From IMG/VR virus record IMGVR_UViG_3300005836_000021, positions 1 to 53,308 of that record: DNA of 53,308 nucleotides, one strand, 5' to 3'. The position numbers were made by a program, and so were the translations under genes. The stretch comes from a virus. Shown here piece by piece: positions 194-53,022 of this stretch. Numbering within the stretch: position 1 is the stretch's first letter; each line of letters opens with the position of its first letter. The notes beneath the pieces are model-generated. The model did not search any database, was not told the DNA's origin, and saw only the letters and a list, made by a program, of their open reading frames with translations.

Positions 194-430
194 ATGACCG
201 AGGAACAGAAGGCGAAGCGGAAGGCCAGCGCGGACAAGCGGGCCAAGGCGGCCAAGCGGCAGCGGGGCCTGTGGCGCGACCTGGCCAACACCGAGCGCGC
301 ACGGGTGCGGAAGTGGCGCAAGGCCCAGGCCAAGGACGGAAAGGCGCTGCCCAAGTGCTGGCACGTGCGGTGCAACGACCCCGAGGCCCCCGGACGCGCG
401 GGCGTGTGCCTCACGGCAGCGGCCAAGTAG
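194..430 (+). CDS. Small Lys/Arg-rich protein (78 aa), function unknown
   Basis: ATG at 194 follows GGGAGGG. Sequence begins MTEEQKAKRKASADKRAKAAKRQR. The track ORF 137..430 gives an alternative upstream start. Confidence 0.5.
   Translation: MTEEQKAKRKASADKRAKAAKRQRGLWRDLANTERARVRKWRKAQAKDGKALPKCWHVRCNDPEAPGRAGVCLTAAAK
359..375 (+). promoter_or_regulatory. Weaker sigma54-like -24/-12 match (TGGCACGTGCGGTGCAA)
   Basis: The GG and GC dinucleotides have the canonical spacing, but the site lacks the TGCATA(T)GG extension and the +14 start codon seen at the other copies. The next start is at 431. Confidence 0.25.
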
Positions 431-601: not shown

Positions 602-1142
602 GACGGGCAAAAGCGCCAAGGCCGTGCAGTGGTTGGCCTGGCTGCGCAGCGGCCTGGGCGGCAGGTGTTGCCGCCTGGGCTGCACCCGTTCCGACCATCT
701 CGAGTTCGCGCACACCGGGCCAACCGCCGTGAAGAGCGGTCGGGGCCGTGGGGCCAAGGAGCGCGAGCGGGACATCCGACAGTACCCCGACCGGTACGCC
801 CTGCTGTGCCGTACGTGCCACAGGGCACTGGACCAGGGGTGGCCCCAGGCCCGCGGGTGGGACGTGGTCAGCGTGGCCGACCAGGCCGCCGTGCGCTGCC
901 TGCCCCTGGCCTGGGGTGGGCGCAAGGACGGCCACGGGGCAAGGGGCAGGGTCGCAGCAAAAATCGGCGCATGGCAAACCCCTACGACACAGGGGGTTGC
1001 CAAAGATTGGCACAGCCTGCCGCAAAGTTGCAACGTCGGGGAGGAGCAGCCAACGGCCTCAATCCCCGTAACCCCTTGGTTCGATGAGGAGGGGGCCTGG
1101 CCGGAACAACTGGCACGCACCATGCATATGGTACCGGCATGA
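594..1142 (+). CDS. HNH-family endonuclease
   Basis: CCRLGC...DHLEFAH...LLCRTCHRALD resembles the Cys-rich HNH beta-beta-alpha-metal signature. Confidence 0.6.
   Translation: MPETGKSAKAVQWLAWLRSGLGGRCCRLGCTRSDHLEFAHTGPTAVKSGRGRGAKERERDIRQYPDRYALLCRTCHRALDQGWPQARGWDVVSVADQAAVRCLPLAWGGRKDGHGARGRVAAKIGAWQTPTTQGVAKDWHSLPQSCNVGEEQPTASIPVTPWFDEEGAWPEQLARTMHMVPA
1111..1131 (+). promoter_or_regulatory. Sigma54-type -24/-12 promoter motif, copy 1
   Basis: TGGCACGCACCATGCATATGG. The GG and GC have the consensus spacing, and ATG 1139 lies exactly 14 nt after the C of the GC. Confidence 0.55.
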
Positions 1143-1381
1143 AGACCCCAACCAACCACGAGCCGGTACTGGAGATGGTGACGGCCGAGCTGATGCGCAC
1201 GGCATGCCCGAACTGCACCTGGGCCAGCAGCATCACCACCGACATTAACCGGGCCCTGCTCGAGGGCAATGCGCACCACACAGTGACCTGGGCCTACCGC
1301 GCCTCGGTTGCCCACTACAAAGACCGCCTTCGCACCGCCGGACGTGGCAGCGCCAACCGCGCGGGAGATTGGAACAAGTGA
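1139..1381 (+). CDS. Hypothetical protein (80 aa)
   Basis: ATGA overlap with the upstream stop. The composition looks coding. Confidence 0.5.
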   Translation: MKTPTNHEPVLEMVTAELMRTACPNCTWASSITTDINRALLEGNAHHTVTWAYRASVAHYKDRLRTAGRGSANRAGDWNK

Positions 1382-1557
1382 TGTACTACATACTCCCGGT
1401 AACGGGGCAGCACTGCACCTGCGGCCAGCCCGCAGCGGCCCGCCTGGTGGACCTGCGCACCAGCGAGCAGGACCTCTTCGAGTGCAGGCCCTGCCTGGCC
1501 AAGCGCCCAGCCACCCAGTTGGTGCTGGCGTACACCTGGCAAAAGGAGGCCGCGTGA
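1381..1557 (+). CDS. Hypothetical small Cys-containing protein (58 aa)
   Basis: TGATG junction with the upstream stop. Sequence MYYILPVTGQHCTCGQ...CRPC. Confidence 0.45.
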   Translation: MYYILPVTGQHCTCGQPAAARLVDLRTSEQDLFECRPCLAKRPATQLVLAYTWQKEAA

Positions 1558-1859
1558 GCATCATCGGCAAGCTGAAGCACAAAGTGGAAATGGCCCTGCT
1601 CGAGGACCAGGCCTCCGAGGAGCGACTGTGCCGCGCCACGCGGCTGCGTGCCCTGGTGGCCGACGCCATGTGCACTTCTTCGGTGGAGTGGTACCTGGGC
1701 AGCGAGCGCGCCACTGTGTCCGACGTGGCCAACGCTTTCCGCGCGGAGCGCGAGTGGCCCTTCACCCGGTGCAGCTTGCGCGTGGTGACCGAGGGCGGTG
1801 GTATGGCCTCGGTGCACACCACCCTGGGCGAGCTGGTGAAGGAACTGGAACGAGCATGA
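1554..1859 (+). CDS. Hypothetical protein (101 aa)
   Basis: GTG start in a GTGA overlap with the upstream stop. It is in frame with track ORF 1308..1859. Confidence 0.5.
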   Translation: MSIIGKLKHKVEMALLEDQASEERLCRATRLRALVADAMCTSSVEWYLGSERATVSDVANAFRAEREWPFTRCSLRVVTEGGGMASVHTTLGELVKELERA

Positions 1860-1890
1860 GCACCCCGCGAGGACCCGTAACAAAGGAGGC

Positions 1891-2244
1891 GTGATGAGAA
1901 AGAGAATCCGTAACAGGGCGAGCATCTTTTTGGGGCCCAGACCCACCCCGGTGGCGGGGGCCACGTGGTTGCTCATCCGAAGCTGCGGCAACTGCAAGCA
2001 GAACCAACAGCGTGGTGCAGCGGTCACTGTTGTGGCCGTGGGGCCTTTGGGGCCTGGGGAACTGTTTGTGCACTACCACTACAGCGACGGCGCCCCGCAC
2101 GTGGTGACACTTTCGGCCTTCTTGAACCGCTTCTGCCTGAAAGGAGAACTGCGGAGGCCGACGCGAGCGGAACTCGAAGCTCACTGGGTGGCGACCCACC
2201 AGCAACAGGCCCAGCCTCTCCTGGCGGTGAACATATTCTCATAA
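1891..2244 (+). CDS. Hypothetical protein (117 aa)
   Basis: AAAGGAGG lies 3-10 nt upstream of the ATG. Confidence 0.55.
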   Translation: MMRKRIRNRASIFLGPRPTPVAGATWLLIRSCGNCKQNQQRGAAVTVVAVGPLGPGELFVHYHYSDGAPHVVTLSAFLNRFCLKGELRRPTRAELEAHWVATHQQQAQPLLAVNIFS

Positions 2245-2250
2245 GCACCC

Positions 2251-2270
2251 AGGCACGCGCTGTGCATAGG
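2251..2270 (+). promoter_or_regulatory. Sigma54-type -24/-12 promoter motif, copy 2
   Basis: AGGCACGCGCTGTGCATAGG. ATG 2279 is 14 nt after the C of the GC. Confidence 0.5.
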
Positions 2271-2278
2271 TAAAGGCC

Positions 2279-2461
2279 ATGGATACCCCAACGACCTGGA
2301 CCGGCACGATGCACAGCGTGTGCTGCGTGTGCGGTGTGGAGTACGGCACCAAGCCATGCGAGCCCGAACAGGACGGCGCCCTCAGCCACGGCATATGCCC
2401 CAGCCCCCAGTGCCTGGAGGACTTCAAGCATGGGCGCAAGCATACAAAGGAGGCCCAGTGA
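2279..2461 (+). CDS. Small Cys-rich protein (60 aa)
   Basis: MDTPTTWTGTMHSVCCVCGVEYGTKPC...HGICPSPQC. It is the first gene behind motif copy 2. Confidence 0.5.
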   Translation: MDTPTTWTGTMHSVCCVCGVEYGTKPCEPEQDGALSHGICPSPQCLEDFKHGRKHTKEAQ

Positions 2462-3219
2462 ACGACCTGACCCCCGTAGAGCGGCACGGCGACATCTGGC
2501 TGAAGCGCGACGACCTTTTCGAGGTGTCGGGCGTGCGCGGAGGCAAGGTGCGTACCTGTTACGCCTTGGCCCAGGGAGCCAAGGGCCTGGCCACCAGCAG
2601 CCACAGGGCCTCTCCGATGGCTGCATACGTGGCCAACATCGCCCGCGGCCTGGGCATCCCGTGCCGGGTGCACATACCGCAAGGGCCCACGACCCCAGAG
2701 ATGGAGGCGGCCAAAGCCGCGGGTGCCGAAATGGTGCCGTGGCGCGCGGGGTACACCAGCGTCCTGAGCGCTCGAGCACGCGAGGACGCCCTGGCCCGGG
2801 GCTGGACCGAGATACCCTTCGGCATGCAAAGCACCACCGCGGTGGAACAGACCGCTGGCCAGGTGGCCAACCTGCCCGAGGAAGCCACCCGGCTGGTGGT
2901 GTCCGTGGGCAGCGGCCTGTCGATCTCGGGCATATTGCACGGCCTGGACCGCGTGGGCCGTAGCACGTTGCCGGTGCTGGGCGTGGTGGTGCGTGCCTCG
3001 CCCCTCAAGCGCCTGGCCCAGTTTGCGCCCAAGGGCTGGGAGCAGCGGGCCACCCTGGTGCAAAGCGTGCACCCCTACGAGCGGCACGTTGACGCCATGA
3101 TCGACGACGTAGTGCTGGACCCGGTGTACGAAGGCAAGTGCAAGGAATACCTGCTGCCGGGCGACGTGTTTTGGATGATCGGCCTGAGCCGCAGCGTGCT
3201 GGACCGACTGGAGGCTTGA
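2458..3219 (+). CDS. PLP-dependent fold-type II enzyme, ACC deaminase / D-cysteine desulfhydrase-like
   Basis: GTG start in a GTGA overlap. IWLKRDDLFEVSGVRGGKVR resembles the family's KRDDL...GGNKxR PLP-lysine region. A Gly-rich VSVGSGLS loop is also present. Confidence 0.65.
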   Translation: MNDLTPVERHGDIWLKRDDLFEVSGVRGGKVRTCYALAQGAKGLATSSHRASPMAAYVANIARGLGIPCRVHIPQGPTTPEMEAAKAAGAEMVPWRAGYTSVLSARAREDALARGWTEIPFGMQSTTAVEQTAGQVANLPEEATRLVVSVGSGLSISGILHGLDRVGRSTLPVLGVVVRASPLKRLAQFAPKGWEQRATLVQSVHPYERHVDAMIDDVVLDPVYEGKCKEYLLPGDVFWMIGLSRSVLDRLEA

Positions 3220-4862
3220 TGCGAATCCTGTTTGTGATACCGCCGTACCGCACCACCGACGCCCTGGTGGCGCAGTTGTACCCCATGCCACTGGCTGCCA
3301 CCCAGTTGGCTGCGGTGGTGCGGCAGCAGCGGCCCGACTGGGGAATCGAGATCAAGGACTTCCTCCTGCCGGCGGGCAAGAGCACCACGCCAGCCCCGCC
3401 CACGTTTGCGGGCAAGGGGGCGCCTCCGTACATCCATTACGGGATGCCCATGCCCCAGGTGCAGGAGTGGCTGCGCACCAACCTGCCCCGCTTCGACGTG
3501 GTGGGCCTGTGCGCAGGGCAGTGCAACCTGTGGGAAACCTCAGAACTGATCGCTGCTGAGGTACGCGCAGCGGGAAAGCCCCTGGTGGTGGGAGGCCCGT
3601 TTGCCAGCACGGCACCGGAGGAGGCCCGCAGGCGCTTCCAGCCCAACATCATCGTCAAGGGCGAGGGCGAGGGCGTGGTGGTGGCTGCCTTTGAGGCGGC
3701 CCTGGCTGGCAAGAGCCTGGACATGGTGGGCGTTGCGGTACAGGACTTGAACACCCTGCCGCTGCCCGCCTGGGACCTGGCCCCGCCCACCGAGTACCCC
3801 GCCTTCAACGGGCGCAAGCGGGGGGTGCTGTGCATCTCCAGGGGCTGCCCGTGGAACTGCACCTTCTGCGCAGTGTGGACCATGATGTCGCGCAAGCACA
3901 GGCGCCTGCACGCCGAACGGGCCAAGGCCGAGATACTGCACCTGTTCAAGCTGGGGGTGCGGTACTTCTCCTTCCTGGACGACAACCTGTTCATATCACG
4001 GGCAGCCACGGCGGAGCTGCTGGCCATACTGGATGACCTGCGGGCCACCGTACCGGGCTTCAAGAAGTGCCGGTTCTACATGGAGGAGGGCCTGGAGGTG
4101 CGCATGGCGGCCGAGCCCGGCATCGTGCGTGACATCGTGGCGGCAGGCTTCGACAACGTGGCCATCGGCATGGAGACCGTGAACGCTGCCCAGGCACGGG
4201 ACTCCAAGAAGCCATACACCCCGGAGCAAATGGCCAGGGCGCTGGTGGAGTGCGACGCGGCTGGGGTGGTGGTGAAGGCGTTTTACATTGTAGGCTTTCC
4301 GCGGGACACGGTGGCCTCGGTGTGCCGGGACCTGGTGCACTTTGGGAAGCTGGGGCTGGCAGCCAGGCCGAACAACCTGAAGCTTTACCCCGGAACCGAT
4401 GTGGCCACCGACTACCAGAAAGCGGGGTGGATCGGAGCCGACTACGACTGGCGCCTTTCAACCTTCTGGACGCCCACCACCCCCGGGCTGCGCTACGAGC
4501 AGATCAAGAAGCTGAAGACGGTGCTGGGCGGCATAGGCTTTGCCGCGGACACCTTCGGAATCCGGGTGTTTGGCGACACGGGTGCCCAGGCCCTGGCCAA
4601 GCTACGGGCGCACAAGTACCAGGCCGAGGTAACGGTGGGTGCCGACGGTGTGTGGGACGCCTTGACCATTACGGGCAACATGTTCCGCCCCACCCCATAC
4701 CGCCACATGGCGGAGGCACTGGTGCTGGCCAGCGGGGCCAACGGTTGCGAGTCTACGGTGTACGGGCAAGGCGTGGGCACCGTGAGAGTGGTGCGAACGC
4801 TGATGCCGAAAAACGAGGTGCAGGCTGGCATCGTTGCGGCCTTGCAGGAGGTGAAGCCATGA
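3219..4862 (+). CDS. Class B (cobalamin-binding-domain) radical SAM enzyme
   Basis: The N-terminal MRILFVIPPY...PLVVGGPF region looks like a B12-binding Rossmann domain. SRGCPWNCTFC supplies the CxxxCxxC cluster. TGATG junction with the PLP gene. Confidence 0.75.
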   Translation: MRILFVIPPYRTTDALVAQLYPMPLAATQLAAVVRQQRPDWGIEIKDFLLPAGKSTTPAPPTFAGKGAPPYIHYGMPMPQVQEWLRTNLPRFDVVGLCAGQCNLWETSELIAAEVRAAGKPLVVGGPFASTAPEEARRRFQPNIIVKGEGEGVVVAAFEAALAGKSLDMVGVAVQDLNTLPLPAWDLAPPTEYPAFNGRKRGVLCISRGCPWNCTFCAVWTMMSRKHRRLHAERAKAEILHLFKLGVRYFSFLDDNLFISRAATAELLAILDDLRATVPGFKKCRFYMEEGLEVRMAAEPGIVRDIVAAGFDNVAIGMETVNAAQARDSKKPYTPEQMARALVECDAAGVVVKAFYIVGFPRDTVASVCRDLVHFGKLGLAARPNNLKLYPGTDVATDYQKAGWIGADYDWRLSTFWTPTTPGLRYEQIKKLKTVLGGIGFAADTFGIRVFGDTGAQALAKLRAHKYQAEVTVGADGVWDALTITGNMFRPTPYRHMAEALVLASGANGCESTVYGQGVGTVRVVRTLMPKNEVQAGIVAALQEVKP

Positions 4863-5032
4863 AGCCTGAGCTGCCGTTGGAGGTGTTGCTGTTGGCCGGC
4901 GGGTGCGCGGCTGGCGCCGTTGCGGGTGTGGTGGTGATGCTGTGGCCCCAGGTGGCCCTGTTGGCTTTGGGCATCTTCGGTGTGGTGCGCTTGGCCGAGT
5001 GGCTGCAAGACCACAGCGTGGAGCCGTGGTGA
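4859..5032 (+). CDS. Small membrane protein (57 aa)
   Basis: ATGA overlap. The hydrophobic stretch LLLAGGCAAGAVAGVVVMLWPQVALLALGIFGVV suggests membrane insertion. Confidence 0.45.
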   Translation: MKPELPLEVLLLAGGCAAGAVAGVVVMLWPQVALLALGIFGVVRLAEWLQDHSVEPW

Positions 5033-5229
5033 GAGTCAGGCATGGGTGGCTGTTCGTTGGCCACTTGGGGTGGCTATTTCTGACCGCCAGACTGGTGTGG
5101 AGGCTGGACACAGGACATCCACCTGTGGGCTTTGGTGTGCGGGTCTTTCTGTGGGAAGGCGACACCGCTGTGGTGGACCTGCTGCTGGGCCCGCTGGACG
5201 TGCAGTTTGGCTTGCGGCGGCTGGAATGA
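5029..5229 (+). CDS. Hypothetical small protein (66 aa)
   Basis: GTGA overlap upstream and ATGA overlap downstream. There is no other support. Confidence 0.35.
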   Translation: MRVRHGWLFVGHLGWLFLTARLVWRLDTGHPPVGFGVRVFLWEGDTAVVDLLLGPLDVQFGLRRLE

Positions 5230-5669
5230 AGCCTCGCACCAGTGCCTTCGCGAAACGCCTGGTGGCAGCCCTGTGGGCACCGCGCACCCTGGAAGATGCC
5301 TGGGCCACGTGCCAGCGCATGCTGGACGAGCAGCAAAAAGTGGCGCGACGTAAGGGCAAACGGGTCAAGCGTTTGCCAAAACGTGGCGCAGCGGAGCGCG
5401 ATCCTGCAACATCCGAGGGGCGTGCAGGGGATGAGGCCGAGATCGTGCGGCGTCGTGAGCTATACCGGATTGTCGAGGAGGCATCGGTCGCTCGCAAGGA
5501 GCGCGCCGAGACTGCCGAGCGGGAGCTGGCCTCCCTCCGCGACAAGGTCGGCAGCGTACAGCGGCCCATTGCTGCACTTAAGGCAGGAGCAACCCAACCA
5601 ACCACACAGTGCGGGGAGGCATCTGAAATAGGCCACATGGCACGCGGCCTGCATATGGGTGAGGCATGA
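5226..5669 (+). CDS. Hypothetical charged, coiled-coil-like protein (147 aa)
   Basis: ATGA overlap. It is in frame with track ORF 4980..5669. Confidence 0.45.
   Translation: MKPRTSAFAKRLVAALWAPRTLEDAWATCQRMLDEQQKVARRKGKRVKRLPKRGAAERDPATSEGRAGDEAEIVRRRELYRIVEEASVARKERAETAERELASLRDKVGSVQRPIAALKAGATQPTTQCGEASEIGHMARGLHMGEA
5638..5658 (+). promoter_or_regulatory. Sigma54-type -24/-12 promoter motif, copy 3 (best match)
   Basis: TGGCACGCGGCCTGCATATGG. ATG 5666 is 14 nt after the C of the GC. Confidence 0.6.
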
Positions 5670-5911
5670 AGACCAAGGCACTTTACCCGCTCCCTACCTA
5701 CGCAGACGCCCACGCCCAAATGGTGAAGGGGCTTGCCCCCGCGGAGCGTGCAAAGTACAACACCGACTCCAAGGTGTACGAGGTGAAGAGCTGCCCCAAA
5801 TGCCCCACGTGCGGCAACAGCCCCACCCCGGACGGGCGCCGGTACTGGGTGCAGGTGCTGAACCGCTGGGCGTACTGCCCGCACCCCTGCCATCAGGTGC
5901 TGGCCAAGTGA
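5666..5911 (+). CDS. Small Cys/His-rich (zinc-binding?) protein (81 aa)
   Basis: CPKCPTCG...CPHPCH. Confidence 0.5.
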   Translation: MKTKALYPLPTYADAHAQMVKGLAPAERAKYNTDSKVYEVKSCPKCPTCGNSPTPDGRRYWVQVLNRWAYCPHPCHQVLAK

Positions 5912-6504
5912 CCCGCGAGGAATGGTTGGCCAAAGCCGCGGGGCCCTTGAGCGCGCTGCTGGTGCAGCGTGCTCACGTGACAGCGCCCCAGTGCTACCTG
6001 AGCGTGGGGTGGCCCAAGAGCAAGCCCGGCAAGGGCCGCAAGGTGCTGGGCGAGTGCTGGAACGGGGCCCGCAGCGAGGACGGTGCCCCGCACATATTCC
6101 TGACCCCGGAAATGAAGGAGGTGGTTCAGGTGCTGGCCACCCTCCTGCACGAGCTGGTGCACGCTGCCGTGGAGCCCAACCTGGGAGAGGGCAAGCGGCC
6201 CGTGGGGCATAAGGGGGCCTTTGTGAAGGCCGCCAAGGCCGCGGGGCTGCTCAAACCGTGGACGGCCACCACCCCGGACGACGGCCTGGTGAACGACCTC
6301 CAGGCCATCGCTGAGGCCCTGGGCCCGTACCCGCATGCGGTGCTGACCCAGGCCCCGCGGGGCACCAAGAAGACCGGCAGGCTGCGGCTGTACAAGTGCC
6401 AGTGCGAACCCCCCGTAAAAGTGCGGGTGGCGCGCGACGCAGACCGCTTCCACGCTACCTGTGACGATTGCTGCGCTACCTTCAGGCGCAAGGAGGAAGA
6501 ATGA
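5908..6504 (+). CDS. SprT-like zinc-metallopeptidase-domain protein with a C-terminal zinc ribbon
   Basis: HELVHAA is an HExxH motif, and YKCQC...CDDCC forms the ribbon. GTG start in a GTGA overlap. Confidence 0.55.
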   Translation: MTREEWLAKAAGPLSALLVQRAHVTAPQCYLSVGWPKSKPGKGRKVLGECWNGARSEDGAPHIFLTPEMKEVVQVLATLLHELVHAAVEPNLGEGKRPVGHKGAFVKAAKAAGLLKPWTATTPDDGLVNDLQAIAEALGPYPHAVLTQAPRGTKKTGRLRLYKCQCEPPVKVRVARDADRFHATCDDCCATFRRKEEE

Positions 6505-6698
6505 CGATCCTGGCTGTGGTGCTGTATACCGTGGGCATACTGCTGGCCGCTTTGGCCCTGGAACTGCTGGGCAAGGTGGCCCCGCCGCTGCTGCCCCTTC
6601 GGGTGCGGTTGGTGGTGATGGCCCTGTGGCCCGTGGTGGTGTTGGTGCTGTGGTGGCTGGCGGGCAGCGAGTACCTCGTGGAACTCGAACGCAGATGA
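6501..6698 (+). CDS. Small two-TM membrane protein (65 aa)
   Basis: MTILAVVLYTVGILLAALALELL...LVVMALWPVVVLVLWWLAG. ATGA overlap. Confidence 0.5.
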   Translation: MTILAVVLYTVGILLAALALELLGKVAPPLLPLRVRLVVMALWPVVVLVLWWLAGSEYLVELERR

Positions 6699-7108
6699 CC
6701 ACCCTCCTGCTGGCCCTGCTGTTGGCCACCCCAAAGCCCGCCTGCACCGCGTGGCGCGCTACCGAGGCCCGCCACGACAACGCCCGCCCGGTGGTGCTGG
6801 GGGCACGGTGCACTGAGCCACCTCCCAAGGGGCTGGAATGCCCAGCCATCATCTGGGAGGTGTGGGCAGGCCGCCCGGGCGACACGGCTGAGCCGGCCAG
6901 CAGGGCCACGTGGGAGCCCGACTGCGACGATAACGTGGGGTGGGAGGCACCGGCAGCGCGCCGGTACCTGCTGCCCGAGGGCATGCAGTGGACCGGGAGG
7001 GTGTGGTTTTGCGGGGGCGGGCTGCAAGGCGCCGAGCGCGGCCCCGCGGGGGCCAGTTGCAAACCTGGCCCCAGGGTGTACAATGACGTTATTTTGCTGG
7101 TGAGGTGA
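6695..7108 (+). CDS. Putative exported Cys-containing protein (137 aa)
   Basis: The N-terminus MTTLLLALLLATPKPAC looks like a signal peptide. ATGA overlap. Confidence 0.45.
   Translation: MTTLLLALLLATPKPACTAWRATEARHDNARPVVLGARCTEPPPKGLECPAIIWEVWAGRPGDTAEPASRATWEPDCDDNVGWEAPAARRYLLPEGMQWTGRVWFCGGGLQGAERGPAGASCKPGPRVYNDVILLVR
7057..7084 (+). promoter_or_regulatory. Sigma70-like promoter TTGCAA-N16-TACAAT
   Basis: Both hexamers were read directly, and such AT-rich hexamers are rare in this GC-rich DNA. It sits 28 nt upstream of ATG 7112, which is preceded by GGTGAGG. Confidence 0.35.
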
Positions 7109-7111
7109 CCG

Positions 7112-7438
7112 ATGAGCATCGATGACACCGCCCGTACGATGGAACGCACCAACGAACACTTCGGGCAGCACCTCGACGACCTGGCCCGCACCGGCGCGCT
7201 GGTGCAGGTGGTGCCCGCGCACAGGCCCGGGGTGGAACAGGTGGACCCATTGGCGCAGGTGCTGGACCCCTGGAACCACCCTTGGGAGGCCGCCCGGCAG
7301 GCCGCCGCGGTGGACTGGGATCGGTACTGGGCGTGGCTGGCCAGCGGACAACAGGGCCTTGGCCCCGACTTCTTCGACACCGACCCCCGCACACCGGCAC
7401 AGCGTTTGCAACAGTACGCACTGGAGGTGAGGCCGTGA
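7112..7438 (+). CDS. Hypothetical protein (108 aa)
   Basis: Track ORF with an SD-like GGTGAGG upstream. Confidence 0.5.
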   Translation: MSIDDTARTMERTNEHFGQHLDDLARTGALVQVVPAHRPGVEQVDPLAQVLDPWNHPWEAARQAAAVDWDRYWAWLASGQQGLGPDFFDTDPRTPAQRLQQYALEVRP

Positions 7439-7590
7439 CACAGACAGGCAAGAAGATGCGCCGGCAATTTGGCACCAGGGCAGCGGCAAAGCGTGCGAAG
7501 GCGCGCAAGGCGAGCCGCAAACGCTTCGGCGAGCTGCCCGTGTCGGAGAAGAAGGGCAACGCGGCCCCGTGGCGAAGTGGGGCGCTGTGA
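7435..7590 (+). CDS. Small basic protein (51 aa)
   Basis: GTG start in a GTGA overlap. KKMRRQFGTRAAAKRAKARKASRKRF. Confidence 0.35.
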   Translation: MTQTGKKMRRQFGTRAAAKRAKARKASRKRFGELPVSEKKGNAAPWRSGAL

Positions 7591-7904
7591 AGCCCCCCGT
7601 GAAGAAGATCGACGTGCTCCGCAGGTACATGGTGGAGGGAGAGTACCGGGCCGCCCTGCGCATGGCGGCCAACTTCCCGCGGCTGCCGGCCAAGGAGCGC
7701 AACACCATCCGCACGGCCTGGGCCGCGTGCAGTAACCCCAACCTGTACGACCAGATGGGCAAGGACCCCGCCACGCTGGTGCAGGCGGGGGTGCAGGCCC
7801 TGCGCAGGGTGTACGAGACGCAGGCCATGGCGTACGCCCGCGGGCTGCGTGACGGTGCGGCCCTGGACGCGCTGCTGCACCCGCTGCGGAACCTACACGC
7901 ATGA
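7587..7904 (+). CDS. Hypothetical protein (about 105 aa; alternative GTG start at 7569)
   Basis: GTGA overlap at 7587. The track ORF is 7569..7904. Confidence 0.5.
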   Translation: MKPPVKKIDVLRRYMVEGEYRAALRMAANFPRLPAKERNTIRTAWAACSNPNLYDQMGKDPATLVQAGVQALRRVYETQAMAYARGLRDGAALDALLHPLRNLHA

Positions 7905-8827
7905 ACGAACTCGACCTGTTTGGAAACACAACGGAGGGGGCCCGGGCTGCGGGCCCCCTGGGCAGTCGGTTCATATTCCCTCCCTTCACAGTGCTGCGTG
8001 GCGACAGCGACACGTGGCTGAGCCGAAAGGCTCACTGGCTGGGCATGGGCATCAAGTCCGAGGTCAGCCGCGAAGATGTCAAAACCTACAGCGTGCCGGG
8101 GTACATGCAGAAGTCCGAGGCCACCGTGTCGGTGTTCGACCCCTGCCTGGCCGAGGTGGCGTACAGGTGGTTCTGCCCCACGGGTGGCCAGGTGGTGGAC
8201 CCGTTTGCCGGGGGCAGCGTGCGCGGCATCGTGGCCAGCTTCCTGGGCCTGCCGTACTGGGGGTGTGACCTGCGCGAGGAACAGGTGCAGGCAAACCGGG
8301 AGCAGGCCGCCGAACTATGCACCCCTGGGCTACCCACACCGGTGTGGGTCACGGGCGATGCCCTGGTGGTGCTGGACCAGGCCCCCGAGGCGGACCTGCT
8401 GTTCAGTTGCCCACCCTATGGCGACCTGGAGGTGTACAGCGAAGACGGCGCCGACTTGAGCACCATGCCCCACGAACAGTTCCTGGAGGTGTACGCGGCC
8501 ATCATCAAGAAGGCCGTGGGCAAGCTGCGGGTGGGCGGCATGGCGGCCTGGGTGGTGGGTGAGTTCCGCGACAAGCGCACGGGGGCCTACCGGGAATTCG
8601 TGCCCGACACCGTGGCGGCCTTCACCCTGGCTGGGCTGCAATACTGGAACGAGGTGACCTACATGACCCCCGTGGGCACCCTGGCCATGCGCACCAGCGC
8701 CAAATTCGAGACCAACCGCAAGCTGGGCAAGAACCATCAGAACATGCTAGTCTTTACCAAGGGCAGGCCCATGGTGGCTGGCATACCCGTAAGCACCACC
8801 ACCCCGATGGGTGGCAAGGAGGAATGA
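7901..8827 (+). CDS. DNA (N4/N6 amino) methyltransferase
   Basis: VVDPFAGGSVRG is motif I (FxGxG type) and LLFSCPPYGDLE is motif IV ((D/S)PPY type). ATGA overlap. Confidence 0.75.
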   Translation: MNELDLFGNTTEGARAAGPLGSRFIFPPFTVLRGDSDTWLSRKAHWLGMGIKSEVSREDVKTYSVPGYMQKSEATVSVFDPCLAEVAYRWFCPTGGQVVDPFAGGSVRGIVASFLGLPYWGCDLREEQVQANREQAAELCTPGLPTPVWVTGDALVVLDQAPEADLLFSCPPYGDLEVYSEDGADLSTMPHEQFLEVYAAIIKKAVGKLRVGGMAAWVVGEFRDKRTGAYREFVPDTVAAFTLAGLQYWNEVTYMTPVGTLAMRTSAKFETNRKLGKNHQNMLVFTKGRPMVAGIPVSTTTPMGGKEE

Positions 8828-9297
8828 TGCGAGCTTTGCTGGTGTACCCGAACGGCGCCCAGGCACAGGTGCTGGAAGTGAACCAGACCCCAGGGCAGTT
8901 GCTCACGCCTGTGGCCAACGAGGATTGGTTCTCCATAAACATGGCCATCCCGGTGTATTGCCCGCCCGTGGTGGACGTGTGGAAAAGGGTAAGCACAGGG
9001 GCACCGGACTTCCCTGTGTACGTGTGGGACCGCCGCGAGGGTGGCCCGCGAGAGGGCCCGGCCGAAGGGCTGCCGTTGGTGCGGGGCCTGCAAGCCTACC
9101 TGCGCACTATGCCCGGGGTCAAGACCTTGGGGGTGCAGGTGGACACGAACGGCGACGTGGCCGTGACCCTACAGGGGCCCACCAAGGCCAGCAGGTATCA
9201 CATGAGTCGATACGGGGTGGAACAGGCTCGGTTCGACCCGCTGCGCACGGCCTTGGAATACGCGGCCACACAATTGCGCAGGGCAGGCGACCTGTGA
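8824..9297 (+). CDS. Hypothetical protein (157 aa)
   Basis: Track ORF with an ATGA overlap. Confidence 0.5.
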   Translation: MMRALLVYPNGAQAQVLEVNQTPGQLLTPVANEDWFSINMAIPVYCPPVVDVWKRVSTGAPDFPVYVWDRREGGPREGPAEGLPLVRGLQAYLRTMPGVKTLGVQVDTNGDVAVTLQGPTKASRYHMSRYGVEQARFDPLRTALEYAATQLRRAGDL

Positions 9298-9872
9298 TCG
9301 ACCTGGCCAAGGTGCCCCTGATCGAAAGCGAGAACCAGACACCGAACCCACCCCGCCGTACTGTGGACCTGGTGGTGCTGCACAGCACCGAGGGAAAGGA
9401 ATACCGCGGCAGCGCCCGCAACGTCGCGGACTGGTTCCAAGACGACCGATGCCACGCCAGCGCCCACTATGTGGTCGACCCTGGTGAGGTGGTGCAGTGC
9501 GTGCCCGACGTGGCCGTGGCATGGCACGCCTACGGGTGCAATGCCCGCGGCATCGGGGTGGAGATGTGCGGCCTGGCCGAACAGACCGTGGCACAGTGGG
9601 CAGACCCCGACAGCCTGGCCATCATCGCCCGCACCGCTGACCTGGTGGCAGCAATATGCCTCAAGTGGCAGATACCTGCAACCGGGATGGCCATTTCGCA
9701 AAACACCGGATGGCAGTGGGTGCTTCAAAATCAGAAAGGTAGAGGCCTTCTGACCCACGCACAAGCCAGTGCGGCGTTCCCGGGCCACGGCAACCATTGG
9801 GATCCAGGGCCCAACTTCCCCTGGGCCGCATTCGTCGAAAAGGTGGCCCGCTTGCTGGAGGGAACGCGATGA
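9294..9872 (+). CDS. N-acetylmuramoyl-L-alanine amidase (Amidase_2 / PGRP, T7-lysozyme-like)
   Basis: VVLHSTEG...ASAHYVV...AWHAYGCNARGIGVE...HGNHWDPGPNFPW carries the zinc-ligand pattern. GTG start in a GTGA overlap. Confidence 0.75.
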   Translation: MIDLAKVPLIESENQTPNPPRRTVDLVVLHSTEGKEYRGSARNVADWFQDDRCHASAHYVVDPGEVVQCVPDVAVAWHAYGCNARGIGVEMCGLAEQTVAQWADPDSLAIIARTADLVAAICLKWQIPATGMAISQNTGWQWVLQNQKGRGLLTHAQASAAFPGHGNHWDPGPNFPWAAFVEKVARLLEGTR

Positions 9873-10114
9873 TGAAATGGAACAAGCGCCGAAAGAAGGG
9901 GCGCAAGCTGAACCTCGTTGTGCAGCAGCACCCGTGGTCGCTGGGCATTGCGGCATGCATCCTCCTGCACGTGCTGCGCTGCCCCACCTTCGCGGGCTGG
10001 GTGCCAATCGGGCGGATGGGCATTGGCCCACGCCCAGCCGTCTGGTACCCCAGGCCCCGGTACGTGTGGCGCATCATCTGGGGCAGCACCATGGGCAAGC
10101 CCCGTGCCCGTTAG
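9869..10114 (+). CDS. Small basic protein with one hydrophobic segment (81 aa)
   Basis: ATGA overlap with the amidase gene. MMKWNKRRKKGRK...WSLGIAACILLHVL. A holin role is only a guess. Confidence 0.4.
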   Translation: MMKWNKRRKKGRKLNLVVQQHPWSLGIAACILLHVLRCPTFAGWVPIGRMGIGPRPAVWYPRPRYVWRIIWGSTMGKPRAR

Positions 10115-10298
10115 GCTGTTGGTCAAGGTGGGCACGGCCTTCATCAGTCAGTGGGGCTTTGGGTGCGTGGTAGCCCTAGGGGCTGATGGGTGGTGTGCGG
10201 TGGCATTCCAGAACGGGGTCACAGGGCGCCTGCCCACCGAGGCGGTACAGGTTTTGCATGAGCGGCTGTTGGCGTTTTGCCGAGTGGGGGTGCAGTGA
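10104..10298 (+). CDS. Possible small protein (64 aa)
   Basis: A GTG in frame with track ORF 9918..10298. It mainly fills a gap. Confidence 0.25.
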   Translation: MPVRLLVKVGTAFISQWGFGCVVALGADGWCAVAFQNGVTGRLPTEAVQVLHERLLAFCRVGVQ

Positions 10299-10891
10299 TG
10301 GCGGAAATTGGCTCCACGACGATCGTGGTGAACGTGCGCTCCGGGTGTGGCCATTGGAGGGCGGATGGCCAGGGCAACAAAGCATACTGTGACCGGGTGG
10401 AGGGCCACGCGGGGCGGCATGCAAGCGGAAACAAATGGTGGCACCAGGGGGCAGAGGGCCTCGAATACCCCGTGGCCGTGTGCGGGGAACACCTGGCCGA
10501 CCATGTGTCATTCAAGCACATCAGCCTGAGCTGTGACAGGCCCAACGGCCACGAGGGACTGCACACCGATAAGGGGTGGTGCTGGGCCACCGGGGCTACG
10601 GCGCCGTGCCCCATGCGCAAGAAGGTGGTGCCCAAGGTGGTGTCGTGGGAGGAGGACGGGCTGCGCACATCGTTGGCTTTTGCCCGCAGCGACCTGGCAG
10701 TGATGAGGCAGGAACGAGACGCCCTGCGCGCAGGCTTGGACGAGGCGGAAAGTGATGCGAAGCGGGCCCAGGCGGACGGGGCGGTGTTGCGCCAAGCAAA
10801 CCGCACGCAATACAAGGACCTCGAGAACAGCAGGGAGGCCACCCGCGAGCTGGGGGCCAAGCTGGCGGCCATCCGTAAGGTGGTGCTGTAG
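10298..10891 (+). CDS. Hypothetical protein with a His/Cys-rich N-terminal half and a coiled-coil C-terminus (197 aa)
   Basis: TGATG junction. GCGHW...CDRVEGHAGRH...CGEHLADH...CDRPNGHEGLH. Confidence 0.5.
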   Translation: MAEIGSTTIVVNVRSGCGHWRADGQGNKAYCDRVEGHAGRHASGNKWWHQGAEGLEYPVAVCGEHLADHVSFKHISLSCDRPNGHEGLHTDKGWCWATGATAPCPMRKKVVPKVVSWEEDGLRTSLAFARSDLAVMRQERDALRAGLDEAESDAKRAQADGAVLRQANRTQYKDLENSREATRELGAKLAAIRKVVL

Positions 10892-11211
10892 TGCGGGCCT
10901 GGGCTGTGATCCGGTACCGGATGGGGCATTGGCTGCGGTGCTTCATTCGACGGATAGTACTGGCCGCAGGTGCGGCGGCCAGTACACGCGGGGAAGCCAA
11001 GCGCAGGCACCTGGCCCGGTTGCTGCGCGCCGAACACGAGGCGCGCTTGCACGAGGTTGGCCGGTGGCGCGAGCACTTGCCCCTGGGGGCGCACGCACGC
11101 CTGCGGTACTACCGGGTCATGCGCCCCAGCGGCCTGCGTCCTGACGGACTGTTACCCAAGGACTTCGAAGATGACCTGGCACCGGTTGTGCATAGGAAAC
11201 AGGCGTGCTGA
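10891..11211 (+). CDS. Hypothetical protein (106 aa)
   Basis: GTG start abutting the upstream TAG stop. Confidence 0.4.
   Translation: MRAWAVIRYRMGHWLRCFIRRIVLAAGAAASTRGEAKRRHLARLLRAEHEARLHEVGRWREHLPLGAHARLRYYRVMRPSGLRPDGLLPKDFEDDLAPVVHRKQAC
11177..11196 (+). promoter_or_regulatory. Sigma54-type -24/-12 promoter motif, copy 4
   Basis: TGGCACCGGTTGTGCATAGG. GTG 11205 is 14 nt after the C of the GC. Confidence 0.5.
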
Positions 11212-11621
11212 TGCCCGCTGCTGTGGTGCTACTGGCCAGCGTACTCGAGGCCCCGCTGTTGGCCCGTGTGGCCAAAAGCGAAGACCCCAGCGCGGGGGCT
11301 GCGGTAATGTGGACGGTGCTGAACCGGGCCCGGGAGTACCGCACCAGCATCTTCGAGGAGGTGACCCGCCCTGGGCAGTATCAGGGCATCTGGACCGTAC
11401 AGGCCAAGGCGTGGTTGGACAACCCCCTGGACGCGGCCCAACTTCAGGCCCTGGAGCGGACCGCGCGGCAGGTGCTGCGGGGTGCGCTCCCAGACCCTAC
11501 AGGCGGCGCCACCCACTTCCACAGGGTGGGCACGGCTGACCCACCGTGGGCACCGGAGGAAGCAAAACGAATACTCGTAGGGAAGCACTGGTTTTACAAG
11601 GAGAAGAAAGATGGCCGATAG
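11205..11621 (+). CDS. SleB-like cell-wall hydrolase (Hydrolase_2 family)
   Basis: VLNRA...RPGQYQG...DPTGGATHFH follows the family pattern NR...PGQF...DPT.GA..F. Confidence 0.65.
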   Translation: MLMPAAVVLLASVLEAPLLARVAKSEDPSAGAAVMWTVLNRAREYRTSIFEEVTRPGQYQGIWTVQAKAWLDNPLDAAQLQALERTARQVLRGALPDPTGGATHFHRVGTADPPWAPEEAKRILVGKHWFYKEKKDGR

Positions 11622-11904
11622 GCAGGCGTACAGGTTGCTGGGTGGGTTCCGCAGCGCGATGGCGCAGGTGCTGCGGGGCGCCAAGGTGTTGGCGGCCAAG
11701 GCCGCGGACCTGATCAAGCTGAAGGGTCCCGGTCGCGACACCGCGGCAGTGCGGCGGGCCCGGCGCGCTTTGGCGCGCTGGGCAAGCGGATACCAGGCCA
11801 CCGAGTACCAGAAGGGCCCCACCTGCGCGCCGGCACAGCGGCGCCTGCGTGCGGCCCTGCGAGCGCGGGGTGGGTGCAGCACGGTGGGCCTGGTGGCCCT
11901 ATGA
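11611..11904 (+). CDS. Hypothetical basic protein (97 aa)
   Basis: Track ORF. Confidence 0.4.
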   Translation: MADRQAYRLLGGFRSAMAQVLRGAKVLAAKAADLIKLKGPGRDTAAVRRARRALARWASGYQATEYQKGPTCAPAQRRLRAALRARGGCSTVGLVAL

Positions 11905-12335
11905 GCCGCGAACTGGGGCGGAGCGACTTCTGGAAGGCCCGGTACGACGAGGCCCAGGAGGAGATCGCGAAGGTCGTGCGCGAACGTGATGCGTTTCGCG
12001 AAGGCCTCACGCACGCGGGCCTGCGGATCAGCGAACTGAACACCCACGTGTCCCTCCTGCAAGGGGACCTCGACGAGGCGGCCACCCGGTTGGTGGCCAA
12101 CACCAAGGACCTGGAACACAAGGCACTCATGCTGCGCCTGGCCCAAGGGGCCAACGTCAGCCTGGCCAGGGCCCTGGATGTGGCACGTGCGCGCACCCGG
12201 GTGGTGGAAGGGGAGGGCCGTGCCCTGGTCAGGCTGGGATTGGAGCTGTGTAACTGGATCGAGGCCGACCTGGGCTCACCATGCTTTTTCTCCCGGGCGG
12301 ACCTGGCAAAAAGTGGCGAGGTGCTGGGCCTGTAG
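11901..12335 (+). CDS. Hypothetical coiled-coil protein (144 aa)
   Basis: ATGA overlap. It is in frame with track ORF 11874..12335. Confidence 0.5.
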   Translation: MSRELGRSDFWKARYDEAQEEIAKVVRERDAFREGLTHAGLRISELNTHVSLLQGDLDEAATRLVANTKDLEHKALMLRLAQGANVSLARALDVARARTRVVEGEGRALVRLGLELCNWIEADLGSPCFFSRADLAKSGEVLGL

Positions 12336-12394
12336 GGTCAACACGTTGCCACTTATTGGCTCCACGGAGCGCGGTTTTGCAACATCACAAGCTC

Positions 12395-12426
12395 CCGCTG
12401 TTTGCTGAACCCCCAGCAAACAGCGG
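12395..12426 (+). terminator. Perfect 12-bp stem-loop (ccgctgtttgct / agcaaacagcgg, 8-nt loop) with no U-tract
   Basis: Read directly in the 152-bp gap after gene 11901..12335. It lies 10 nt upstream of sigma54-like copy 5. Confidence 0.4.
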
Positions 12427-12436
12427 AGCAGGGCCC

Positions 12437-12457
12437 TGGCACACACCCTGCATATGG
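12437..12457 (+). promoter_or_regulatory. Sigma54-type -24/-12 promoter motif, copy 5
   Basis: TGGCACACACCCTGCATATGG. ATG 12465 (an 8-codon mini-ORF) is 14 nt after the C of the GC, and the main gene starts at 12488. Confidence 0.55.
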
Positions 12458-12487
12458 GTAAGGCATGACCCAGGCAAAGGAGACCAA

Positions 12488-12982
12488 ATGACCAAGGGAA
12501 TGAGGTTTGCGGAACTGCCCACGGGGGCCCCCTTTGTGTACCAAGTGGGTGGGCCCGAACAGACCAAGCTGGGCCCCCGGCGTGCGCAGCAGCACGGGGC
12601 CCCGGGACCCTACCGCGTGAAGCCCAACACCTACATCCTCGCAGTGCTGCCCGACCCCACCCCCGAACAGGTGCAGGCCAAGCGGGCCACGAATATGACC
12701 CGCCACCTCGAGGGCACGCGGGCCTACGCCCAGGGGCTGGTAGAGGCGTGGGGCACCAAGTTTGCCAACGCCCCAGCCTACGCCTTCGAGTGGGCAGACC
12801 AGGCCATGGAAGCGGCCGCCCGGGTGGCGGTGTACACCGAGGCCCAGCGCATACTGGCGGCCAGCGGCCTGGACAAGCTGATGGTGGTGGCCCGCGGCCC
12901 TACGCGGCGCGCGGCCAACACCATGGCCCAGTACATGAACCAGGCGTGGGCGGAGATTGCGGCCCAGGAGGAGGAGCTGTGA
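12488..12982 (+). CDS. Hypothetical protein (164 aa)
   Basis: AAAGGAG lies upstream of the ATG. It is in frame with track ORF 12281..12982. Confidence 0.55.
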   Translation: MTKGMRFAELPTGAPFVYQVGGPEQTKLGPRRAQQHGAPGPYRVKPNTYILAVLPDPTPEQVQAKRATNMTRHLEGTRAYAQGLVEAWGTKFANAPAYAFEWADQAMEAAARVAVYTEAQRILAASGLDKLMVVARGPTRRAANTMAQYMNQAWAEIAAQEEEL

Positions 12983-50998: not shown

Positions 50999-51215
50999 GG
51001 GCTAAGCCTCAGAGCCACAACGAGTTACAGCAGCACGTCTTCTGGTCGAGGACAGCGCCTCGTTCACCCGCTTTGCGTGGGGAGGTCCTGGGACCCCGGA
51101 CCTGTCGACACAATAACTTACAAAGGAACGTTGTGCTTGCGCGCAGCAAGGGGAGGAGGTATGTTCCGACGCAAAAACAGCAGGGGGTATGCCCCCTCCC
51201 TCCTCCTTATGTGTC

Positions 51216-51537: not shown

Positions 51538-51567
51538 TTGCATCAACCCACTAGCCTGTGCTAATAT
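51538..51567 (+). promoter_or_regulatory. Rightward sigma70-like promoter TTGCAT-N18-(TGc)TAATAT
   Basis: TTGCATcaacccactagcctgTGcTAATAT ends about 38 nt upstream of ATG 51606, which is preceded by AAGGGAGG. Confidence 0.5.
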
Positions 51568-51605: not shown

Positions 51606-51965
51606 ATGAAGGTTAGGGTCACACCAGAATTCAAGGCTGCGTACCACGCCCGCCCTGCGTCGTTGACCAGGATGTTACTGGCCAGGTGCGCTCAGGTTAC
51701 AAACGACGATTTGGTGGGCTTGTACTTTGCCCCCAGTTTCGCCTTCGTTGACAGCCCCGTGCACATGGCGCGAATCCAGGCATTTGCGCAGGGCCTGCAC
51801 TTCGAGGGCCCTTTGGTGGTGCCCGACGAGGCCTCGGCCCTGCGCGAAGAGGTACGTGCGGCACGCACCGCGCGGCACGCGAAGGCACGTGCGGATGAAA
51901 TCGCGCGGCTCAAGGGCGAGCTGGCCCTGCTGCGCGCGGCACAAGCCCAAAGTCCCAATGAATAA
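51606..51965 (+). CDS. Hypothetical protein (119 aa) with a C-terminal coiled coil
   Basis: Track ORF with a strong SD. Confidence 0.55.
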   Translation: MKVRVTPEFKAAYHARPASLTRMLLARCAQVTNDDLVGLYFAPSFAFVDSPVHMARIQAFAQGLHFEGPLVVPDEASALREEVRAARTARHAKARADEIARLKGELALLRAAQAQSPNE

Positions 51966-51986: not shown

Positions 51987-52190
51987 ATTTCTGCGTTGCA
52001 CCCTCGTGAATTTGCTTGATCGCTGGGCAATCGGGTGCAAGCAAAAAGTGGCTTCCTCGTAACCCACTTGAAATCAGTCCTTTGCCAAATATTGGCTTCC
52101 TGGAGCGCGTTTCTGCAACATTCGGGGGTTGGCGCCGGTGCGCCTGCCCCCAGAAACGGCCTGTTCCGCGAGTTTATTTTGGAACAAGGT

Positions 52191-52211
52191 TGGCACGCAG
52201 ACTGCATATGG
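52191..52211 (+). promoter_or_regulatory. Sigma54-type -24/-12 promoter motif, copy 6
   Basis: TGGCACGCAGACTGCATATGG. Coordinates were set from the frame of ORF 52035..53000. The gene start at 52254 has AAGGAGG upstream. Confidence 0.5.
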
Positions 52212-53001: not shown

Positions 53002-53022
53002 TGGCATGCACACTGCATAAGG
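53002..53022 (+). promoter_or_regulatory. Sigma54-type -24/-12 promoter motif, copy 7
   Basis: TGGCATGCACACTGCATAAGG. ATG 53031 is 15 nt after the C of the GC. Confidence 0.5.

Follow-up and report, generated by a model that had tools for sequence, protein, structure and literature searches.

The sequence considered here is the IMG/VR virus record IMGVR_UViG_3300005836_000021, analysed over its whole length of 53,308 nucleotides (nt) and called the window below; it is clearly that of a tailed phage. In this genome we found a family of seven motifs, which we named E1, lying on one strand directly ahead of start codons in the early and replication arm. The E1 family is real and statistically solid, and a sigma-54 promoter is the reading best supported by its sequence. 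We hold, with modest confidence, that E1 sites are promoters of the host sigma-54 holoenzyme accompanied by upstream activator sites.

Seven E1 sites on the plus strand

E1 follows the pattern TGGCAC-N6-TGCATA(t)GG and occurs seven times, always on the plus strand (Table 1). An earlier note, made from the letters of this DNA, had listed seven sites with their sequences and had described them as spaced between GG and GC like TGGCACG-N4-TTGCW, oriented with the genes, placed directly before start codons and missing from the minus strand ahead of the late genes. Our analysis bears this out: all seven lie where they were said to lie, the GG-to-GC spacing is exact at 7/7, the motif is followed by a start codon, 7 nt on at five sites and 8 nt on at two, and the whole minus strand is without a member of the family. 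The weaker site that the note placed at position 359 is a different case. It does match the generic sigma-54 consensus, but it is intragenic, without the TGCATA extension and without a start codon next to it, and we do not count it as a member of the family. Such generic matches are at chance level in the window, with 13 found and 17.5 expected at two mismatches or fewer. With the E. coli matrix the site scores 12.4 bits, and chance is expected to give 5.07 sites of 12 bits or more.

With at most two mismatches to TGGCACNNNNNNTGCATANGG, we counted seven sites where dinucleotide shuffles gave an expectation of 0.66, and none of 100 shuffles reached seven. This count pattern was derived from the sites themselves, and the independent test is the E. 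coli matrix described in the next section. A pattern-free repeat search returned the E1 motif as the leading short repeat family of the genome (families D2 and D3), and seven of the ten TGCATA hexamers on the plus strand fall within it.

The two ends of the window are identical over 120 nt (1-120 = 53189-53308), and it is thus a complete genome that closes to a circle of 53,188 bp, with 66% G+C. Once the circle is closed, sites 52191 and 53002 become the first two of one contiguous arm running from 52191 to 12457, and this E1 block takes up the first 13.5 kb of the plus-strand arm. Two classes of sites can be told apart. Those at 52191, 1111, 5638 and 12437 (class A) share the exact core TGGCAC-N6-TGCATATGG, which continues with GTAAGG in three of the four. 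Those at 53002, 2251 and 11177 (class B) depart from the exact core and are found within operons, in very short gaps or at gene ends. An RNA structure or a known RNA family at E1 was also considered and dropped: there are no Rfam matches or tRNAs genome-wide, and no pairing pattern is apparent in the N6 spacer.

Match of E1 to sigma-54 promoters

We scanned both strands of the window, about 106,000 positions, with a weight matrix built from 42 intergenic and sense-oriented sigma-54 sites of E. coli determined by chromatin immunoprecipitation and sequencing (ChIP-seq) (PMC4591121). Six E1 sites occupied ranks 1 to 6, with 17.2, 17.0, 16.8, 16.6, 14.2 and 12.9 bits; the seventh, at 2251, came fifteenth. 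Genuine E. coli sites have a leave-one-out median of 14.8 bits. At 16 bits or more there are four sites in the window against 0.46 expected from composition-matched simulations, none of the 300 simulations having reached four. A scan of this kind, with an RpoN matrix and randomized sequence, had been proposed in the earlier note, and its outcome makes the sequence-level part of the sigma-54 claim stronger than it was put there; the alternative that the note also allowed for, a phage-specific factor, is still alive and is weighed below.

The extended sigma-54 consensus, Y-TGGCAC-G...TGCW, is matched at 12 of its 13 positions. A pyrimidine precedes TGGCAC at six of the seven sites and a G follows it at five. 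The sole departure is at the first T of TTGC, where the E1 sites have C, G or A. With C the -12 box becomes CTGCA, a variant found among the listed E. coli sigma-54 sites in norV, astC and glmY (PMC4591121); norV reads CTGGCACGCAATCTGCA where the phage reads TTGGCACGCAGACTGCA. These scores imply that an arbitrary conserved motif of the same composition would do as well as E1 with a chance of roughly 1 in 10,000.

Predicted transcripts begin next to the start codon

Sigma-54 transcription starts were placed 12 nt after the GC, that is 19 bp after the motif centre (PMC4591121). By this rule the predicted start points of 7/7 sites are all 2-3 nt ahead of the fixed start codon. Five genes begin at that codon (53031, 1139, 2279, 5666 and 11205), and their Shine-Dalgarno pairing is weak, between -2.9 and -6.9 kcal/mol where the other genes, most of which carry a GGAGG-type Shine-Dalgarno sequence, have a median of -8.6 kcal/mol (Mann-Whitney p = 0.017). 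Class B sites have a marginal AGGA, reading TAGGA or TAAGGA at 7-8 nt from the start codon, and class A sites have no usable Shine-Dalgarno sequence. A start 2-3 nt before the codon together with weak ribosome-binding sites fits near-leaderless mRNAs, and the register between E1 and ATG is most simply explained by a promoter whose distance to the start codon is fixed.

Two of the fixed start codons, those behind 12437 and 52191, do not begin a gene. Behind E1 12437, the ATG at 12465 opens a mini open reading frame (ORF) of eight codons (MTQAKETK, 12465-12491), which contains the AAGGAG Shine-Dalgarno sequence of gene 12488-12982 and ends in an ATGA overlapping the start of that gene. This arrangement may provide translational coupling from a leaderless start.

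Similar starts occur elsewhere in this phage and in two distant relatives. On the minus strand, the sequence TTGCAA-N17-(TG)GATAAT (42702-42674) is followed, after N5, by the ATG of gene 42668-42459, ahead of the portal, and from this spacing the gene looks like the beginning of a leaderless late transcript. The latter are the related contigs L125 and L126, in which the radical S-adenosylmethionine (SAM) enzyme is 58-59% identical to that of the phage. In L125 (~9950-10003), TATAAT-N7-ATG stands at the radical SAM gene; in L126 (~3360-3409), TATACT and then a GGAGG Shine-Dalgarno sequence stand near the radical SAM ATG. Leaderless starts may be common in this group of phages.

An upstream element accompanies four E1 sites

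A second element, which we named E2, reads TTGCCA-N5-TGGC-N17-TGCAAC(A/G)T and combines a GCCA-N5-TGGC dyad with a TGCAAC block; GGAGCGCG is additionally common to three of its copies. There are exactly four copies, all on the plus strand, and nothing weaker genome-wide. Each is upstream of one of the four exact-core E1 sites, and 53002, 2251 and 11177 have none. The earlier note had advised looking for conserved elements upstream of E1 and had itself missed E2, which stands 109-283 bp upstream at 4/7 sites. This layout suggests four operon-head promoters with an enhancer-like partner and three internal promoters.

As the intervening DNA is not conserved, E2 and E1 are separately maintained modules and not copies of one duplicated segment. 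A 6-N5-6 dyad some 110-130 bp upstream is the classical arrangement of sites for enhancer-binding proteins, and E2 is most likely a candidate upstream activator sequence for an AAA+ protein of this type. Two other assignments of E2 were tried. As a sigma-70 or extracytoplasmic function (ECF) promoter, on either strand, it shows weak hexamers, 18-19-bp spacers and no conserved -10 box, and we set this aside as a less likely reading. It is not a sigma-54 site with a longer spacer either (TGGC to TGCA is 21 nt, against 12 nt in E1), nor a helical repeat of E1. Hairpins lie between E2 and E1 ahead of 12437 and 52191; they may insulate operons, the one at 12395..12426 as an insulating terminator, or be a protein-binding site.

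A search of metagenomes and IMG/VR with the combined E2 and E1 pattern gave two independent cellular loci in which a TGCCA-N5-TGGCA dyad and TGCAAC lie 85-100 bp upstream of near-perfect sigma-54 promoters, CTGGCACGTCCCGTGCA and CTGGCACGATATTTGCA. The first, seen in four orthologous stretches (L135, L137, L138 and L139), is that of an OmpA-type lipoprotein gene and is probably verrucomicrobial; the adjoining UvrC falls in a cluster with a protein from a Verrucomicrobiae metagenome-assembled genome (MAG). The second (L140) belongs to a response regulator-groES-groEL operon. These loci hint that the dyad is a real type of activator site; since independent cellular matches are about as many as chance would give for the pattern, we regard them as a lead only. 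A further locus, L141, proved to be a palindromic operator-like cluster and is not comparable.

Table 1. E1 and E2 sites and other features of the window (scores from the E. coli sigma-54 matrix; distances of E2 dyad centres counted from the predicted start point of the E1 site named)
Feature	Position	Strand	Sequence	Description
E1, class A	52191..52211	+	TGGCACGCAGACTGCATATGG	16.6 bits; first site of early arm; GTG 8 nt downstream
Gene behind E1 52191	52254-53000	+		SASA-type esterase with its own AAGGAGG Shine-Dalgarno sequence, start 63 nt further on
E1, class B	53002..53022	+	TGGCATGCACACTGCATAAGG	16.8 bits; 2 nt past esterase stop codon
ORF behind E1 53002	ATG 53031	+		93 amino acids (aa), Cys-rich, spans circular junction
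E1, class A	1111..1131	+	TGGCACGCACCATGCATATGG	17.2 bits, top score of the genome; ATG 1139, 80-aa ORF
E1, class B	2251..2271	+	AGGCACGCGCTGTGCATAGGT	10.4 bits, weakest member; ATG 2279
ORF behind E1 2251				60 aa, Cys-rich; then pyridoxal phosphate (PLP) enzyme and B12-binding radical SAM enzyme
E1, class A	5638..5658	+	TGGCACGCGGCCTGCATATGG	14.2 bits; ATG 5666, 81-aa ORF
E1, class B	11177..11197	+	TGGCACCGGTTGTGCATAGGA	12.9 bits; within 3' end of ORF 10891-11211
Gene behind E1 11177	GTG 11205	+		138-aa Hydrolase_2-type cell-wall hydrolase
E1, class A	12437..12457	+	TGGCACACACCCTGCATATGG	17.0 bits; head of replication operon (DNA polymerase A onward)
E2	52082..52122	+	TTGCCAAATATTGGCTTCCTGGAGCGCGTTTCTGCAACATT	dyad centre at -127 (E1 52191)
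E2	997..1037	+	TTGCCAAAGATTGGCACAGCCTGCCGCAAAGTTGCAACGTC	dyad centre at -132 (E1 1111)
E2	5373..5413	+	TTGCCAAAACGTGGCGCAGCGGAGCGCGATCCTGCAACATC	dyad centre at -283 (E1 5638)
E2	12346..12386	+	TTGCCACTTATTGGCTCCACGGAGCGCGGTTTTGCAACATC	dyad centre at -109 (E1 12437)
Hairpin	12395..12426	+		perfect 13-bp stem between E2 and E1, no U-tract; -28.7 kcal/mol, z = -5.3
Two hairpins	52120..52190	+		between E2 and E1; -35.7 kcal/mol, z = -3.2
Generic sigma-54 consensus match	359..379	+	TGGCACGTGCGGTGCAACGAC	inside gene 191-430; 12.4 bits, rank eighth
Sigma-70-like promoter, extended -10	51538..51567	+	TTGCAT-N18(..TGC)-TAATAT	very head of plus arm
ORF	51606..51965	+		119 aa, GGGAGG Shine-Dalgarno sequence, coiled-coil C-terminus; hairpin 51969-51986 behind
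Sigma-70-like promoter, extended -10	48608-48580	-	TGGAAC-N17-TACAAT	
Sigma-70-like promoter, extended -10	42702-42674	-	TTGCAA-N17-GATAAT	
Plus-strand arm	51.6 kb across junction to 24.9 kb	+		early/replication genes: small orphan genes, PLP enzyme, B12-binding radical SAM enzyme, DNA methylase, cell-wall hydrolases; DNA polymerase A, nucleases, SNF2 helicase, primase-polymerase
Minus-strand arm	~51.0 kb down to 24.9 kb	-		GpA lambda-type large terminase, lambda-family portal, ClpP-type protease; further genes for decoration protein, E-type major capsid protein and tail

Sigma-70-like promoters and the probable host

The plus arm has practically no sigma-70-like promoters, one being found where 1.0 was expected. 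A strict consensus scan missed the extended -10 sequence at the very head of this arm (51538..51567), the -35 box of which matches at only 3/6 positions; this is a candidate immediate-early promoter. The 119-aa protein encoded next to it had no homologue among 1.84 billion representative proteins, where only the protein itself was found, and we infer no more than that this immediate-early product is a candidate phage regulator.

The only taxonomic anchors of the phage are in the Acidobacteriota. Its large terminase is 64% identical to a copy in a prophage remnant on contig JAIBCN010000079.1 of the Vicinamibacteria MAG GCA_019694155.1, which carries host genes, and a Bryobacteraceae MAG encodes a DNA polymerase 40% identical to that of the phage. 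The host is, by these protein matches, probably an acidobacterium. Sigma-54 is almost universal in diderm bacteria that bear lipopolysaccharide (PMC3162934). The Vicinamibacteria element is itself small, bears an integrase and a lambda-type portal, and is inserted among the host genes metH and ETF-QO.

Comparison with known systems

Enhancer-dependent sigma-54 promoters working with AAA+ enhancer-binding proteins are textbook matter (glnAp2, pspA, norV, glmY). E1 is like these bacterial promoters in its exact GG/GC spacing, its extended consensus, its orientation with the genes and its scores, which are those of the upper half of the E. coli sites; the 6-N5-6 dyad also lies ~110-130 bp upstream at three E1 sites, and 283 bp upstream at the fourth. 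It is unlike them in belonging to a phage genome, in forming a near-identical family conserved from -11 to +5, in having no linked activator gene and in lacking the upstream element at three members. The predicted start 2-3 nt from the start codon sets it apart from the E. coli set, as detailed below.

The earlier note had called phage gene sets driven by sigma-54 rarely described. This agrees with the searchable literature, in which the Pseudomonas phage YuA (Yuavirus) is the only precedent that we found. The YuA record holds three promoter-trap fragments from the late structural region, annotated '-24/-12 consensus', and one sigma-54-like start site was detected in YuA by ONT-cappable-seq (bioRxiv 10.1101/2023.10.13.562163). 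Five 28-bp repeats of YuA are annotated 'sigma70 promoter requiring phage-encoded cofactor' (bioRxiv 10.1101/2023.10.13.562163). YuA and the phage studied here have a module of PLP enzyme, radical SAM enzyme and DNA polymerase A in common; at the DNA level no similarity between them could be detected, and their proteins are distant relatives. The -24/-12 fragments of YuA are few, come from the late region and form no conserved family, and a scan for a sigma-54-like pattern found no match in them, whereas the conserved repeat motif of YuA is sigma-70-like (CTTTACTTCTTCGG...CACTATA) and unlike E1. New with respect to YuA are a family of seven members over the early and replication arm, enhancer-like partners at four of them, predicted transcripts that are nearly leaderless, and no activator gene.

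Middle promoters of phage T4 depend on MotA and AsiA. As in T4 and in the YuA repeats, E1 is a family of motifs of ~20-30 nt on one strand, upstream of early or middle genes, in an arm headed by one separately transcribed gene. Promoters that depend on phage factors are, however, built on a sigma-70 -10 box, and E1 has no credible -10/-35, nor is a phage factor identifiable. In Cluster K mycobacteriophages, whose hosts are not known to have sigma-54, a start-associated sequence (SAS) containing the ribosome-binding site is accompanied by an extended start-associated sequence (ESAS) upstream. E1 shares with these the asymmetry, the position a few nt ahead of the start codon in only some of the genes, and the second element at a variable distance upstream; unlike SAS, it has no Shine-Dalgarno sequence and matches a defined class of promoters. 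The early promoters of the Streptomyces phage phiC31 were dropped from the comparison when a scan of NC_001978 did not support a resemblance to sigma-54 promoters.

Which factor could read E1

In the reading that we favour, the host sigma-54 holoenzyme would stand in closed complexes on E1, and from the seven sites the plus-arm genes for early functions, DNA modification and replication would be transcribed. An AAA+ activator bound at E2 would loop over and open the four operon-head promoters (52191, 1111, 5638 and 12437), while the internal promoters 53002, 2251 and 11177 would be served by neighbouring enhancers or from solution. Transcription would begin 2-3 nt ahead of the start codon and give essentially leaderless mRNAs for five small genes, and the mRNAs from 12437 and 52191 would have a leader and then a normal Shine-Dalgarno sequence. 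As no phage activator is recognisable, the ATPase would have to be that of the host. That the early and replication programme runs wholly on the sigma-54 holoenzyme without a canonical phage activator seems unlikely to us, and it could take two forms. A host enhancer-binding protein responsive to stress (PspF-like, for envelope or heat stress) might sense infection and act through E2, or an orphan early protein, for example the 119-aa product, might open or bypass the closed complex without an AAA+ ATPase.

Several observations weigh against sigma-54 as the factor. High-GC sequence is prone to yield good sigma-54-like strings by chance: simulated sequences reached 15.4 bits on average with their best position, and at 13 bits or below the window shows no enrichment. 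A single good string being no rarity, the weight of the argument lies in the fact that the consensus of an independently defined family stands at the top of the sigma-54 score range. The conservation of E1 also exceeds what sigma-54 needs (TGCATATGGGTAAGGCATG; ATATGGGTAAGGCATG from -11 to +5). Promoters read by phage factors typically show this, and it is for this reason that a phage-specific factor stays a live rival. We know of no precedent for near-leaderless sigma-54 mRNAs. In the E. coli set, the predicted starts are at least 18 nt from downstream coding genes, and only the small RNA gene glmY has its start at 1 nt (PMC4591121). The earlier note had seen no GAFTGA-type activator, and we confirm this: about 85 ORFs, and the sequence in any frame, hold neither a GAFTGA motif nor a GxxGxGK Walker motif, and no match to Pfam Sigma54_activat or to an activator in PHROGs. 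It would be odd for a virulent-looking phage to rely on the activator state of its host for the whole early programme, and the assignment to an acidobacterial host has one good anchor only. Finally, neither E1 nor a comparable repeated motif is present in the related contigs that we fetched (L116-L126), the nearest of which are 63-67% identical in large terminase, 44-50% in DNA polymerase and 58-59% in the radical SAM enzyme; no relative in the collections is closer than 50-72% protein identity.

The alternative to be taken most seriously, rather unlikely as we think it, is that E1 sites are phage-specific middle promoters at which a holoenzyme of the sigma-70 family is redirected by an unrecognised phage protein. 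TGGCAC would then be an activator box, like the MotA box of T4, TA(t)GG would be a weak -10, and the likeness to sigma-54 would be convergent or coincidental; E2 would be an early host promoter or an operator, and the 119-aa product or the small Cys-rich early proteins would be candidates for the factor. E1 does show what is expected of such promoters, a long and nearly invariant motif on one strand and in one temporal gene block, with near-identity over ~30 nt, and YuA, with its shared PLP, radical SAM and DNA polymerase A module, has its five repeats in a like position. If TATGGG is taken as the -10, the canonical start 7 nt later falls on the A of the ATG, which is a better leaderless register than that of sigma-54; no activator ATPase is necessary, and the arm opens with one gene that has a sigma-70-like promoter of its own and a hairpin. 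Against this, the -10 reading keeps only TA, the T at -7 is missing in 6/7 sites and the TG does not stand where an extended -10 box would have it. Chance or convergence would moreover have to produce the 12/13 match to an independent consensus with exact spacing, at the rarity of roughly 1 in 10,000 given above. Neither Pfam nor PHROGs revealed a sigma factor, an RNA polymerase, a sigma-appropriating protein or a DNA-binding domain in any ORF, many early ORFs being orphans among which such a protein is possible. If a phage factor reads E1 after all, a new specificity factor is hidden among the orphan early genes.

The regular position of E1 also allows it to be seen as an element acting at translation starts, on the mRNA or by binding a protein, and not as a promoter, with E2 as its paired upstream element. 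The fixed 7-8 nt to the start codon at 7/7 sites, the second conserved element at variable distance, as in SAS and ESAS, and the TAGGA or TAAGGA of class B, which could act as a weak Shine-Dalgarno sequence, all agree with this. We nevertheless judge it improbable: E1 contains no ribosome-binding site at functional spacing as SAS does, class A has nothing usable, the pairing downstream is weaker than that of other genes, and at 12437 and 52191 the fixed codon does not begin a gene. The exact sigma-54 match would be left unexplained and the plus arm would have almost no promoters. The sigma-54 holoenzyme might lastly bind E1 unproductively, the sites being roadblocks, insulators or sigma-54 sinks between operons transcribed from elsewhere. 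Many genuine sigma-54 sites of E. coli are indeed intragenic and not known to fire (PMC4591121), and hairpins adjoin two E1 sites; as 7/7 sites point with the genes and stand exactly at gene starts, four have enhancer-like partners and no other promoters are evident for these operons, we give this very little credence.

If the sigma-54 reading is true, early and replication operons stand behind enhancer-dependent sigma-54 promoters. Phages usually take over the housekeeping sigma-70 polymerase or bring their own polymerase or sigma factor, and this would be a different strategy of take-over. Such promoters would give no transcripts before an ATPase activator fires them, and the development of the phage would thereby be tied to the signalling state of the host. 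E1 would also be a compact natural set of strong, near-identical sigma-54 promoters with and without enhancers, useful for the study of enhancer dependence and of the leaderless translation of sigma-54 transcripts in a poorly known soil phylum. Should the phage do without an AAA+ activator of its own, in either of the two forms given above, its near-leaderless sigma-54 transcripts would be of a kind hitherto undescribed.

Relatives and further features of the genome

The phage appears virulent. It has no nucleotide match to cultured phages, and its proteins are less than 40% identical to theirs. A large protein collection contains this contig once and, in addition, a fragment of 6.8 kb (L121) that represents the same phage in another sample, 3300001372; the nearest homologues there are 72% identical in large terminase, 50% in DNA polymerase and 59% in the radical SAM enzyme. 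The exact E1 pattern is found in 115 stretches of IMG/VR, and all 80 that were listed have a single match, as by chance. Scans of IMG/VR with single proteins gave no matches.

The pair of a PLP-dependent enzyme and a B12-binding radical SAM enzyme (2458-4862) is the same as that of YuA gp11 and gp12. A MazZ-like dATP/dGTP diphosphohydrolase is encoded at 18867-19295, a second radical SAM enzyme lies in the structural arm (27827-28978), and the genome has a match to the nucleoside 2-deoxyribosyltransferase family, its ORF unplaced. The presence of PLP, radical SAM, MazZ-like and deoxyribosyltransferase-type functions suggests DNA base modification. The SASA-family carbohydrate esterase at 52254-53000, the first long gene behind the first unit of E2 and E1, has a lipoprotein-like signal peptide (LLAC). 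An esterase is an unusual early function and might serve cell-surface modification or superinfection exclusion.

Among the tail-end genes of the minus arm, three segments of ~100 nt (25887-25986, 29844-29943 and 30133-30232) are paralogous, with 63-70% identity, and are probably duplicated N-terminal modules. The control region between the diverging arms (51000-51600) is relatively A+T-rich and has two TTATGTGTCA repeats (51207 and 51282), several palindromes containing TGCAT and, on the minus strand, a hairpin AGGGGGTATGCCCCCT (51182-51197) followed by a T-run. This region may hold a packaging site, an origin or a small minus-strand transcript.

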